A DNA stretch of 64,000 nucleotides from Escherichia phage YW01. Under the pieces are notes generated by a model, which ran no database searches, was not told the origin of the DNA, and saw nothing but the letters and a program-made list of their open reading frames with translations. A program made the translations under genes and the position numbers. Shown here piece by piece: positions 34,540 to 36,451 of this stretch. Location of the stretch: sequence record PV018828, one strand, 5' to 3'. Within the stretch, counting starts at the first letter, position 1, and every line of letters begins with the position of its first letter.

Positions 34540-35901
34540 TTAGTTGTTTGTTTCCATGTCAAAAGAGATTCCACGACCCGCTTCATCGGCAAACCGAACT
34601 GTGCGGGTTTGAGGTTCTAATACTTCAGGGTTGTTAGCAACAAAGCGGTCAGCGAGATTTCGACTGATGGTCTCAGCAAGTTCCTCATGAGAAGGAACAT
34701 CAAGACTACCTGCCACATCTTGGGCTACACCTTCATCAGTCCACACAGCCCTAACAGGTGCGTTGATATCACCAACAGCAAAACCCTGACCAGAGAACTG
34801 ACGTGCGCTAACAGTTAAACCATTTGGACGACCACGAGAAGGACTAGCCATCCATCTCTCCATAGAATCACTTGTAATACCAAGAGCTTCTTCAAAAGAT
34901 GTTCTACGAGTAGGGCTTACTCTTCGTGACTCTTGTGCTCGGCGCATTGCAGGGGCTACAAACACCCCTTCAATTGCATTGTGCCGATTAGGTTCATCTT
35001 CTCGACCAAGGAGATCTCCTCCTGTATTAGTTGTTAAGTTTGTCAACCCTTCAGACCAATATGCACGAATCTGGCTAGAGCCATGAATGCTTGACATTAA
35101 CTGAATCTCTTCATAAGGGATTCCAAAGAATCGACTCATGTCTCGGTTAACACAATATTGAGCACTTGTTGTATCCTCAATAAGAGAAACCTGACCTAAT
35201 CCATTAACCAGATGACTAACCGGCTGGGGTGTGGGAAGATATCGAGTTTGGGCCATGTATTGATGTGCAACTGCTGGAGAGGAAAATCTCAATACTTGCG
35301 AGTTAGGCCACTTCTTGTGAACGTATCTGATTTCACGACTAGAAACAACCACTGGACAGGGGGCGGTCATAGCCAAATACCCATGAGAAGTCATGAATAA
35401 ATTGTCAAGAGTCATCGCACCACGACACATCATAGGAAAATTATCCAATACCTCTTCAATAGAAGTAGGATAATTAAACATGAATTGGATACGAACCCCA
35501 TTCCACTGAAACTCAATAATATCAGTGAATGTTAATTGAGAACCCCCAGCATAGGATTCGTTCGTAGCTTCAGCAAGAAGGGATGCATACTCGATATCTT
35601 GTGACTCTAGCCATTCCTTCACATTACTTTCAATCTCTCTTCCAAGAGCTTGCCAACGGTCAGTTGGGATGAATGTGTTTTGAGTTCTTGGTGTTTGTCC
35701 TCTGACAATAAAGATATCAATGTCATGTGGAGCTGTGTTATTAAGCACAGCATCTCGAACAGCCCCACCAGTAATGATGGGACAAATACCGTCTGGAATC
35801 AAGTTGTTGTTAATCAACTGTTCAATGAAATGACGACCAACAGTGATGTCGGGTTGTTGAGCAACCTTATCTTCAATTCGGTTAATCGGGATAACAATCA
35901 T
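34540..35901 (-). CDS. Pol-beta-superfamily nucleotidyltransferase with CCA-adding/poly(A)-polymerase-like head domain
   Basis: ITGGAVRDAVLN..APHDIDIFIV matches the GGxVRD..D.D head motif; start taken at ATG 35901. Confidence 0.5.
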   Translation of the reverse strand: MIVIPINRIEDKVAQQPDITVGRHFIEQLINNNLIPDGICPIITGGAVRDAVLNNTAPHDIDIFIVRGQTPRTQNTFIPTDRWQALGREIESNVKEWLESQDIEYASLLAEATNESYAGGSQLTFTDIIEFQWNGVRIQFMFNYPTSIEEVLDNFPMMCRGAMTLDNLFMTSHGYLAMTAPCPVVVSSREIRYVHKKWPNSQVLRFSSPAVAHQYMAQTRYLPTPQPVSHLVNGLGQVSLIEDTTSAQYCVNRDMSRFFGIPYEEIQLMSSIHGSSQIRAYWSEGLTNLTTNTGGDLLGREDEPNRHNAIEGVFVAPAMRRAQESRRVSPTRRTSFEEALGITSDSMERWMASPSRGRPNGLTVSARQFSGQGFAVGDINAPVRAVWTDEGVAQDVAGSLDVPSHEELAETISRNLADRFVANNPEVLEPQTRTVRFADEAGRGISFDMETNN

Positions 35902-35902
35902 T

Positions 35903-36451
35903 TTACATTTTCCAATATAATGAAGGTGGGTCGTAAGGATCAAATCCTGTGAGTTCACACAAGTATTTATAAACCTTAACAGTTAAGTTAACGTCCTGTT
36001 CACAATAAGTAAACATATCTTCAGTGAAAGCATCCCATGCTTCCTCTTGCTCACCGTAGTCACCTTTAAGTTCTTCTAAGAACTCACCCCATTGCTTTAA
36101 GCCATGACCCCTTGGGCCACGTCTAGGGTCGCCTTTCGGATACTCAGGACTGTCACCAATACGGTCAGGTTTAAGATATCGACTCAGACATAAAGTGTCA
36201 AAGACGTTAAAATTATATTTAATCAAAGAGGGATACATCTTTTTCAGAACACATAAATCGTAATCAATGATGTTGTGTCCGACTAAAACGTCCGCCTCTT
36301 TTAACTTGAAGATTGCATCTTCTATTTGATGTGGGCGATAACCCCAACGTTCTCCAGTTTTTACATCAAATATGTAAACGCACCAGATATTTGTTACCTC
36401 ATCATACAATCCATTAGATTCTATATCAAAGGCATAGATTTTCTTATCCAT
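35903..36451 (-). CDS. standalone DnaQ-like 3'-5' exonuclease (DEDD family)
   Basis: Exo I FDIES, Exo [10 protein letters not shown], Exo [11 protein letters not shown]. Confidence 0.75.

Follow-up and report, generated by a model that had tools for sequence, protein, structure and literature searches.

A divergent class II-like nucleotidyltransferase in the replication operon of an Escherichia Kuravirus and its distant phage relatives

Introduction

What use does a phage have for a protein that carries the signature of the tRNA CCA-adding enzymes? The question is raised by a reverse-strand gene in a 64,000-nucleotide stretch of Escherichia phage YW01 (PV018828), the whole of which is called the window here. 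A sequence-only reading of this locus had described a protein of 450-470 amino acids with the GGAVRD..D.D head motif of class II tRNA nucleotidyltransferases (NTases) and poly(A) polymerases, followed by about 350 residues without obvious similarity, and had proposed that, together with the phage-encoded tRNA-Arg, it may repair tRNA 3' ends damaged by host defence nucleases, or polyadenylate RNA. The window belongs to Kuravirus (Gordonclarkvirinae), the SU10/phiEco32-like prolate podophages of E. coli, and phages TH06 and EC.W2-6 are 96% identical to it in nucleotide sequence. The gene itself and its label are already known: about 90 GenBank genomes call it "nucleotidyltransferase", and several records carry the label "class II CCA-adding enzyme" or "tRNA nucleotidyltransferase". 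Mass spectrometry has picked up a single peptide from the orthologue in SU10 (PMC4281155), and our search of the literature found no experimental work on the protein.

In this work we asked which features of the class II enzymes the protein has kept, which other phage proteins it resembles and in what company its gene travels. Very likely we are dealing with a divergent NTase of class II-like type rather than with a canonical CCA-adding enzyme. The explanation that we prefer as a whole, to which we give a probability of about 40%, is that of a minimal class II-type NTase of the Pol-beta superfamily, active on an acceptor other than tRNA, which would protect the phage from host nucleases.

Results and discussion

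The catalytic head and its comparison with class II enzymes

Coordinates of all gene features are given in Table 1, and residues are numbered from the ATG at 35901. An AlphaFold2 model, built with a 45-sequence alignment, is confident for residues 1-288, where the predicted local distance difference test score (pLDDT) is mostly 84-96. When the PDB was searched with Foldseek, the top 42 matches were all class II CCA-, CC- or A-adding enzymes, with E of about 1e-5, and the other Pol-beta families (TENT5, CD-NTases, Pol X and MenT) scored at most 7.6. The fold similarity spans about 160-170 residues, over which the order of secondary-structure elements is that of the class II enzymes and of poly(A) polymerase I (PAP I; PF01743; 1MIV, 3H37, 3AQL). 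With these enzymes the protein also shares motif A, GGxVRD-x9-DxD. Both halves are present, and together they form the sole match to the relaxed pattern GGxxxD-x6-14-DxD in all six frames of the window. Conservation was counted in 40 relatives that are 22-42% identical to the Kuravirus protein: G45, G46, D50, D62 and F64 are kept in 39 of them, R49 and D60 in 38. By these alignments the conservation of motif A is far beyond chance. The head motif named in the sequence-only reading is thereby borne out, including the catalytic Asp pair, and profile searches put the protein into a clade related to the class II enzymes, not into an unrelated one. Retention of motif A across such distant relatives is the pattern expected of an active enzyme, and the head domain is probably active.

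The resemblance is narrow. The Pfam PolyA_pol profile gives the protein 20.4 bits, under its gathering score of 23 (orthologues reach 13.5-20.1 bits or do not match), a search of PDB sequences with the single protein found no match, and the family profile matches only the 27 residues of motif A in 6ibp (E 0.004); at the level of sequence, therefore, the likeness to class II enzymes is detectable in motif A only. The hallmark of these enzymes is a catalytic core with motifs A-E, of which motif D (EDxxR) templates CTP and ATP; its D and R proved irreplaceable in a selection on the human enzyme (PMC11784652). We found no motif B RRD in residues 100-200, where the aligned segment reads D-N-F-P-M-M-C-R-G, and no [ED]DxxR in the core, where the sole conserved helix motif is R-[DE]-x-x-Y193-x-x-K-K. 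By alignments that are of low confidence beyond motif A, the RRD of motif B corresponds to NFP, the Glu of the third carboxylate to Gln and the EDxxR of motif D to R[DE]xxY. The AlphaFold2 model contains none of the helical domains, body and tail, with which class II enzymes grip the elbow of the tRNA; where the class II enzymes and PAP I have body and tail or leg domains, the Kuravirus NTase has a disordered tail of 165 residues, and unlike theirs its gene lies within a DNA-replication operon. The elements which make class II enzymes specific for tRNA and CCA would thus appear to be lost, with low confidence in the part of this statement that concerns single residues.

Could the enzyme nevertheless mend tRNAs, restoring CCA or the terminal A on host or phage tRNAs that a defence nuclease has trimmed? 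Its nearest solved folds are the class II CCA- and A-adding enzymes and PAP I, its motif A is intact, the phage carries one tRNA gene, and defences which cut tRNA 3' tails do exist, for example Cas12a3 (PMC12851939). The replaced motifs B and D and the missing body and tail domains speak against such a role, and so does the tRNA gene itself. The only Rfam match, with nothing found within or near the NTase gene, is to the tRNA; the model stops at 52682, where a CCA triplet comes directly after it and then a run of T. Since this tRNA-Arg(TCT) encodes its own 3'-CCA, it needs no CCA addition to mature, and E. coli already has Cca. The tRNA gene is 17 kb from the NTase gene, which sits in the replication operon, and we found no evidence of a functional tie between the two. 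Small related NTases are moreover encoded by phages phiAS7 and PP1, whose complete genomes contain no tRNA genes. Repair of tRNA is therefore very doubtful, and the link to tRNA-Arg drawn in the sequence-only reading did not hold; the outcome for that reading as a whole is a refinement, not a refutation.

Residues that differ from class II enzymes

In class II enzymes the third catalytic carboxylate is a Glu. The position aligned to it is Asp in the small NTases of T7-like phages and Gln in the Kuravirus protein, where Q139 is kept in 37 of the 40 distant relatives. An hhalign comparison places Q139 opposite Q88/89 of the phage protein Gad2, and MAFFT places it opposite the Asp of phiAS7-type proteins. 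From sequence pattern and strand order, as distinct from structural superposition, we infer that Q139 is the equivalent of the class II Glu. The segment in the place of motif B (RRDFTINA in class II enzymes) has a nearly invariant proline, P156 (36/40), and is aligned with FDFTVCMG in Gad2 and with FDxxxN in the small phage NTases. At the site of motif D in class II enzymes, the AlphaFold2 model has a helix at residues 188-197 with the family signature R-[DE]-x-x-Y-x-x-K-K-x-P, in which Y193 is kept in 37, D/E190 in 36 and K197 in 35 of the 40 relatives; its positional equivalence to motif D may hold, at low confidence. The residue pairings offered by hhalign beyond about residue 175 were too uncertain, and we did not use them.

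A folded subdomain and a disordered tail

What of the roughly 350 residues said to be without similarity? This description was only partly right, as the class II fold runs for about 160-170 residues and residues 206-288 are folded as well (pLDDT 81-95); it is the last part, residues 289-453, that is predicted to be disordered. The family-specific subdomain at 206-288 is weakly conserved between genera; W/F/Y282 and G285 recur across the family. The tail has a pLDDT of 29-47, except for a weak helix at residues 405-423 (34633-34689) with 57-63. Between genera the proteins can be aligned from residue 1 to about 210 only; the NTases of Kuravirus, Nieuwekanaalvirus and Suseptimavirus have C-terminal halves of different length and unrelated sequence, and distant metagenomic relatives of 274-290 amino acids retain the core and lack the tail. 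Within Kuravirus the ratio of non-synonymous to synonymous substitution rates (dN/dS) is 0.09-0.15 in the tail against 0.04-0.07 in the core, and the disordered tail is under purifying selection in this genus. Net charge and isoelectric point, considered as clues to nucleic-acid binding, were dropped, the head and neck of the E. coli CCA enzyme being equally acidic.

Some further features of the tail were recorded. Residues 305-330 (34912..34989, reverse strand) hold two sites resembling those of basophilic kinases, RRVS and RRTS; the segment reads RRAQESRRVSP, followed by TRRTSF just past residue 330. An R-x-[ST]-F element seems to recur in the tails of other genera in alignments judged by eye, and the genes of the relative SU10 include one for a putative Ser/Thr phosphatase, which lies outside the compared stretch.

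The long tail under selection, the invariant Gln that alignments place opposite the third carboxylate and the tight coupling of the gene to that of the polymerase exonuclease subunit might all suit a protein which is no longer a working enzyme, whose head binds a nucleotide as a ligand and whose tail serves as an adaptor in the replisome or against a host protein. We consider such a catalytically impaired scaffold very improbable. The DxD, GG and RD of motif A are kept in very distant relatives, those relatives of 274-290 residues which have no tail preserve the core all the same, and Gad2, which carries the same Gln, is functional in vivo.

Small nucleotidyltransferases of T7-like phages

Which proteins, then, are the nearest relatives outside the family? 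By profile comparison they are the members of PHROG 1614 (such as gp03 of Aeromonas phage phiAS7, gp18 of Pectobacterium phage PP1 and gp14 of Vibrio phage OWB), stand-alone NTases of Autographiviridae, about 200 residues long, with a head-only architecture. The Kuravirus protein matches PHROG 1614 in hmmscan with E 8.5e-8, and hhalign relates its family to these small NTases with E 2.3e-6 and a probability of 89%. The small NTases in turn are related to E. coli CCA with E 4e-6 (87%), closer than the Kuravirus family, which reaches E 3e-3 (9.7%) against the single E. coli CCA sequence; controls with reversed sequences gave E 0.06-0.15 and at most 1%. A fold search of BFVD led to the same group, the enzymes of about 200 residues of Aeromonas phage phiAS7 and Providencia phage PS3, with target-normalised template modelling (TM) scores of 0.53-0.60; phiAS7 gp03 is a PHROG 1614 member. 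The small NTases differ in several ways: at the place that aligns with the third carboxylate they have retained an Asp, their motif B preserves its D...N, and the extra subdomain, the tail and an adjacent dCTP deaminase are missing. Their genes lie beside those of DNA polymerase or ligase, at most two genes away in Melnykvirinae, Maculvirus and Molineuxvirinae.

In phiAS7 the NTase gene (3050..3661) is found between DNA ligase and DNA polymerase, and the phage also encodes a polynucleotide kinase and a metallophosphoesterase. The genome has no tRNA genes, and this set resembles a toolkit for the healing and sealing of ends.

Comparison with the anti-Gabija protein Gad2

Gad2 is a 400-residue anti-Gabija protein of SPbeta-like phages, among them SPbetaL6 and SPbetaL7, with an NTase domain predicted by AlphaFold, and its role was verified by knockout and with a homologue from a Brevibacillus laterosporus prophage (bioRxiv 10.1101/2023.05.01.538930). 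The Pfam family PF26128 "Gad2" has a weak precomputed match on most Kuravirus homologues. We collected Gad2 homologues and built our own alignment and hidden Markov model (HMM) from them. In hhalign the Kuravirus family and Gad2 align over at least 113 columns with E 7.5e-5 and a probability of 62%, compared with E 0.24 and 0.3% for Gad2 and E. coli CCA. The HMM of the Kuravirus family matches all 120 Gad2 proteins, at best with 19.5 bits, and E. coli CCA with 2.9 bits. Both are phage-encoded NTases of about 400 residues with an N-terminal AGG...DxD domain, and the order of helices and strands in the N-terminal domain of an SPbeta-type Gad2 model is the same. They share the invariant Gln (IQxM vs LQxI), on the strand aligned to the third-carboxylate strand, and a Cys-x-Gly following F-[P/D], that is, the segment F-[D/P]-x-x-x-C-x-G. 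They differ in that Gad2 has ITS in place of VRD after GG, keeps the Asp of FDFT where the Kuravirus family has Pro, and ends in a folded, beta-rich domain (residues ~250-400, pLDDT ~85-95) where the Kuravirus NTase is disordered; and gad2 is found at a hotspot of anti-defence genes in temperate Bacillus phages instead of a replication operon. On these profile comparisons the place of the Kuravirus family would be intermediate between Gad2 and the small phage NTases, the group nearest to the CCA enzymes.

The N-terminal part of Gad2, about 196 residues, has homologues of ~40% identity in many large myophages of Gram-negative bacteria, such as Cronobacter phage GAP32, Salmonella phage PVP-SE1 and Pectobacterium phage CBB. 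They align to this part only, and several of the matches span more than one annotated hypothetical gene. The NTase domain of Gad2 may therefore exist apart from its C-terminal domain.

The second half of the sequence-only proposal, action on RNA, is best considered beside these relatives. As a minimal poly(A) or homopolymer polymerase the enzyme would tail RNA 3' ends, either marking host or phage transcripts for decay, with host shut-off or nucleotide recycling as the purpose, or tailing primers. Some relatives are annotated "polyA polymerase", and an NTase of a T7-like phage, with homologues described in the same preprint as annotated Gad2 family, is toxic when overexpressed (bioRxiv 10.64898/2026.09.15.751885), as is SPbetaL7 Gad2 (bioRxiv 10.1101/2023.05.01.538930), which would fit an action on host RNA. 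However, PAP I is reported to rely on neck, body and leg domains and on EDxxR (PMC2532741), which are absent from the Kuravirus NTase, and the Pfam and NCBIfam scans detected no RNA-binding domain in it. We regard RNA tailing as quite unlikely.

The gene, its start and its family

The open reading frame (ORF) is real, but where does the protein begin? The longest version in the ORF list, 34540..35958 on the reverse strand, has 472 codons from a GTG start, of which the first 19 overlap the 3' end of the upstream exonuclease gene. The ATG at 35901 is one base past the TAA of that gene (35905-35903). PHROG 12715 covers only residues 20-472 of the long ORF, over all of its profile positions (1-457/457; E 2.5e-262), and the orthologues of SU10, KBNP1711 and SU7 are annotated from the Met equivalent to this ATG; for these reasons the product is most likely the protein that starts at 35901 and not at GTG 35958, and its 453 residues lie within the size range given by the sequence-only reading. 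A scan for promoters and terminators gave counts no better than those in shuffled sequence, and we gave no weight to a promoter-like site at 35943-35914, although SU7 has an annotated promoter at the same place.

Its product shares 99.6% identity with those of TH06, EC.W2-6 and EC.W8-1 and 95% with SU10_074, and Kuravirus orthologues range over 81-99.6%. A word-indexed search returned only relatives of >79% identity. When 1.84 billion representative proteins were scanned exhaustively with HMMER, the family proved small, with 32 clusters, all phage-like, and no cellular homologue among them; on this ground we reject a recent bacterial origin. NCBIfam and PADLOC scans of the protein gave no match, NCBIfam containing no Gad2 model.

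Neighbouring genes

The NTase gene stands third in a tight co-directional string of primase/helicase, exonuclease subunit, NTase and dCTP deaminase (Table 1), which we take to be co-transcribed and into which an Endonuclease VII/HNH-type ORF is inserted in the window isolate only. This ORF is not found at the equivalent spot in SU10, KBNP1711 and SU7, and its insertion is the reason why megablast covers only 86% of the region. The ORF probably encodes a homing endonuclease, and one has been noted at this locus in the BASEL-2 paper (PMC11990801).

Table 1. Features of the nucleotidyltransferase gene, its product and its surroundings in the window
Feature	Position	Strand	Remarks
Nucleotidyltransferase gene	34540..35901	-	453 codons + stop; ATG 35901, TAA 34540-34542
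19-codon GTG extension	35902..35958	-	outside PHROG profile and orthologue annotations; probably untranslated
Conserved catalytic core, aa 1-205	35287..35901	-	class II-like head domain and short neck-like helix
Motif A, first half, GGAVRD, aa 45-50	35752..35769	-	aligns to GGAVRD of the Planococcus CCA enzyme 6ibp
Motif A, second half, D60-I-D62	35716..35724	-	catalytic carboxylate pair; conserved in distant relatives
Q139	35485..35487	-	invariant Gln, aligned by sequence to third catalytic carboxylate
FPMMCRG, aa 155-161	35419..35439	-	occupies the place of class II motif B (low-confidence alignment)
REIRYVHKKWP, aa 189-199	35305..35337	-	on the helix where class II carries motif D (EDxxR; low-confidence alignment)
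Family-specific subdomain, aa 206-288	35038..35286	-	ends in aromatic motif YWSEGL (35044-35061)
C-terminal tail, aa 289-453	34543..35037	-	predicted disordered; Arg/Ala/Glu/Gly-rich
dCTP deaminase	33997..34530	-	Pfam DCD, 118.5 bits; 9 nt after NTase stop
Family-A DNA polymerase 3'-5' exonuclease subunit, 182 aa	35903..36451	-	Pfam DNA_pol_A_exo1; stop 1 nt before NTase start
Endonuclease VII/HNH-type ORF, 147 aa	36444..36887	-	Pfam Endonuclease_7, 70.6 bits
Primase/helicase	36881..38671	-	Pfam DnaB_C and Toprim_2; orthologue annotation; heads the co-directional string
tRNA-Arg(TCT)	52679..52754	-	ARAGORN

All three genera have the exonuclease, NTase and dCTP deaminase genes in this order, as do metagenomic phages with an NTase of just 23-30% identity, and NTase and deaminase adjoin in every locus examined, down to about 25% identity. 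Phages of Bruynoghevirus and Zobellviridae share the amidoligase, ATP-grasp and gamma-glutamylcyclotransferase genes, the primase/helicase and the PolA module, and have neither NTase nor deaminase. An essential part of the replisome is thereby ruled out; the NTase is an accessory fixed in its lineage and not a universal replisome component.

Is the faithful partner of the NTase a clue to its function? Together with the dCTP deaminase it might act on the nucleotide pool or in DNA modification, helping to make or install a non-canonical base or nucleotide, and the resistance of these phages to restriction would then be accounted for. The constant adjacency of the two genes and their joint absence from Bruynoghevirus and Zobellviridae favour this idea, the loss of the ribose-sensing RRD, if the alignment is right, would be compatible with the use of dNTPs, and the phages resist restriction-modification systems without known modification genes (PMC11990801). 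The pair has indeed been noted in the BASEL-2 paper, where DNA modification is speculated to lie behind the resistance (PMC11990801). Against it, dCTP deaminase with the phage ThyX makes up the ordinary route to dTTP in a genome of 42% GC, neither the small NTases of T7-like phages nor Gad2 has a dCTP deaminase as neighbour, and no modification has been reported for Gordonclarkvirinae phages. To our knowledge, no DNA hypermodification pathway uses a class II-type NTase. We think this role unlikely.

Several other features of the surroundings deserve mention. The family-A polymerase is split, with the 182-residue exonuclease subunit and a 614-residue polymerase ORF (25241..27085, reverse strand) about 9 kb apart; the latter is presumably the polymerase, as we take it from its size and its position relative to the SU10 annotation. 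A cluster of amidoligase, glutamine amidotransferase, ATP-grasp and gamma-glutamylcyclotransferase genes, recognized by synteny with SU10 only, lies upstream of the replication genes (~40012..48466, reverse strand); this cluster, or part of it, is common to the Bruynoghevirus and Zobellviridae relatives (PaP_Se, Vibrio phage 1.293.O), whereas the NTase-deaminase pair is not. Just downstream of the dCTP deaminase are three abutting reverse-strand ORFs of 65-69 amino acids (33381..33590, 33590..33799 and 33799..33996), paralogues of 26-27% identity which have in common a TRxxARxxK motif and KVxY at the C terminus; at the same spot SU10 carries four ORFs of similar size. Finally, a Ferritin/Dps-like ORF (32423..33034, reverse strand; Pfam Ferritin, 31 bits), odd cargo for a lytic podophage, has orthologues labelled "DNA-binding protein" in SU10 and relatives.

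Weighing the explanations

We hypothesize that the Kuravirus protein is a minimal Pol-beta NTase peculiar to a phage lineage, whose core keeps motif A, the motif that binds NTP and Mg. During the replication phase it would transfer a nucleotide onto an acceptor other than tRNA, for which a DNA or RNA 3' end or a small nucleotide are candidates. The purpose may be to shield phage replication from host defences of the nuclease type, as its relatives Gad2 and PHROG 1614 may do, and the disordered tail could be a genus-specific docking arm. The mechanistic part of this proposal, anti-defence through a non-tRNA acceptor, is tentative. Against the defence systems that were tested, Gordonclarkvirinae show unusual resistance (PMC11990801). 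We rank a Gad2-like function first, followed by DNA modification or dNTP metabolism, RNA tailing, tRNA repair and, last, the non-catalytic adaptor.

A number of observations do not sit easily with the explanation that we prefer. The residue equivalences beyond motif A are low-confidence sequence alignments, and with an invariant Gln where the third metal ligand aligns, catalysis could be weakened or changed. The kinship with Gad2 is weak and, by the profile comparisons, appears to exist at the superfamily level only: with the Gad2 HMM the best member of the Kuravirus family scores 14.4 bits and the window protein itself -0.6 bits, and the beta domain at the C terminus of Gad2 (KFYKFV...GKYFS.YD region) cannot be aligned in the Kuravirus NTase. 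As a fixed syntenic core gene and not a hotspot accessory, the gene is atypical for anti-defence. A 2026 review gives the mechanism of Gad2 as unknown (PMC12904381), so that to say that the protein works like Gad2 transfers little, and Gabija is not mentioned in the study of Gordonclarkvirinae (PMC11990801).

Conclusions

Compared with the literature searched, three points are new: the explicit failure of the protein to show the marks of a CCA-adding enzyme, its anatomy of core, subdomain and selected disordered tail, and its placement between PHROG 1614 and Gad2, together with the Gln shared with the latter at the position aligned to the third carboxylate. The first of these removes a misleading annotation of the tRNA-repair type, and the profile link to Gad2 and the small NTases gives three orphan phage families a single, concrete hypothesis that can be tested. 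The enzyme is among the few in the replication operon of Gordonclarkvirinae without an assigned role, in a group of abundant coliphages of broad host range that are used in therapy cocktails.

Could the Kuravirus NTase, the T7-like-phage NTases of about 200 residues and Gad2 be one ancient, phage-specific clade of "head-only" class II-type enzymes, which modify a non-tRNA target during replication so that host nucleases such as Gabija stay untriggered? We regard this as rather unlikely. The target would be, for example, phage DNA 3' ends or a regulatory nucleotide, the triggers avoided would be those of end- or nucleotide-sensing nucleases, and a distinct chemistry would be signalled by the Gln-for-carboxylate site that the Kuravirus family has in common with Gad2. 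A Gad2-type function, if confirmed, would make the protein considerably more interesting. If the three families do form one such clade, a core gene would help to explain the broad defence resistance of Gordonclarkvirinae, and their NTase would offer a tractable E. coli model for the mechanism of Gad2.

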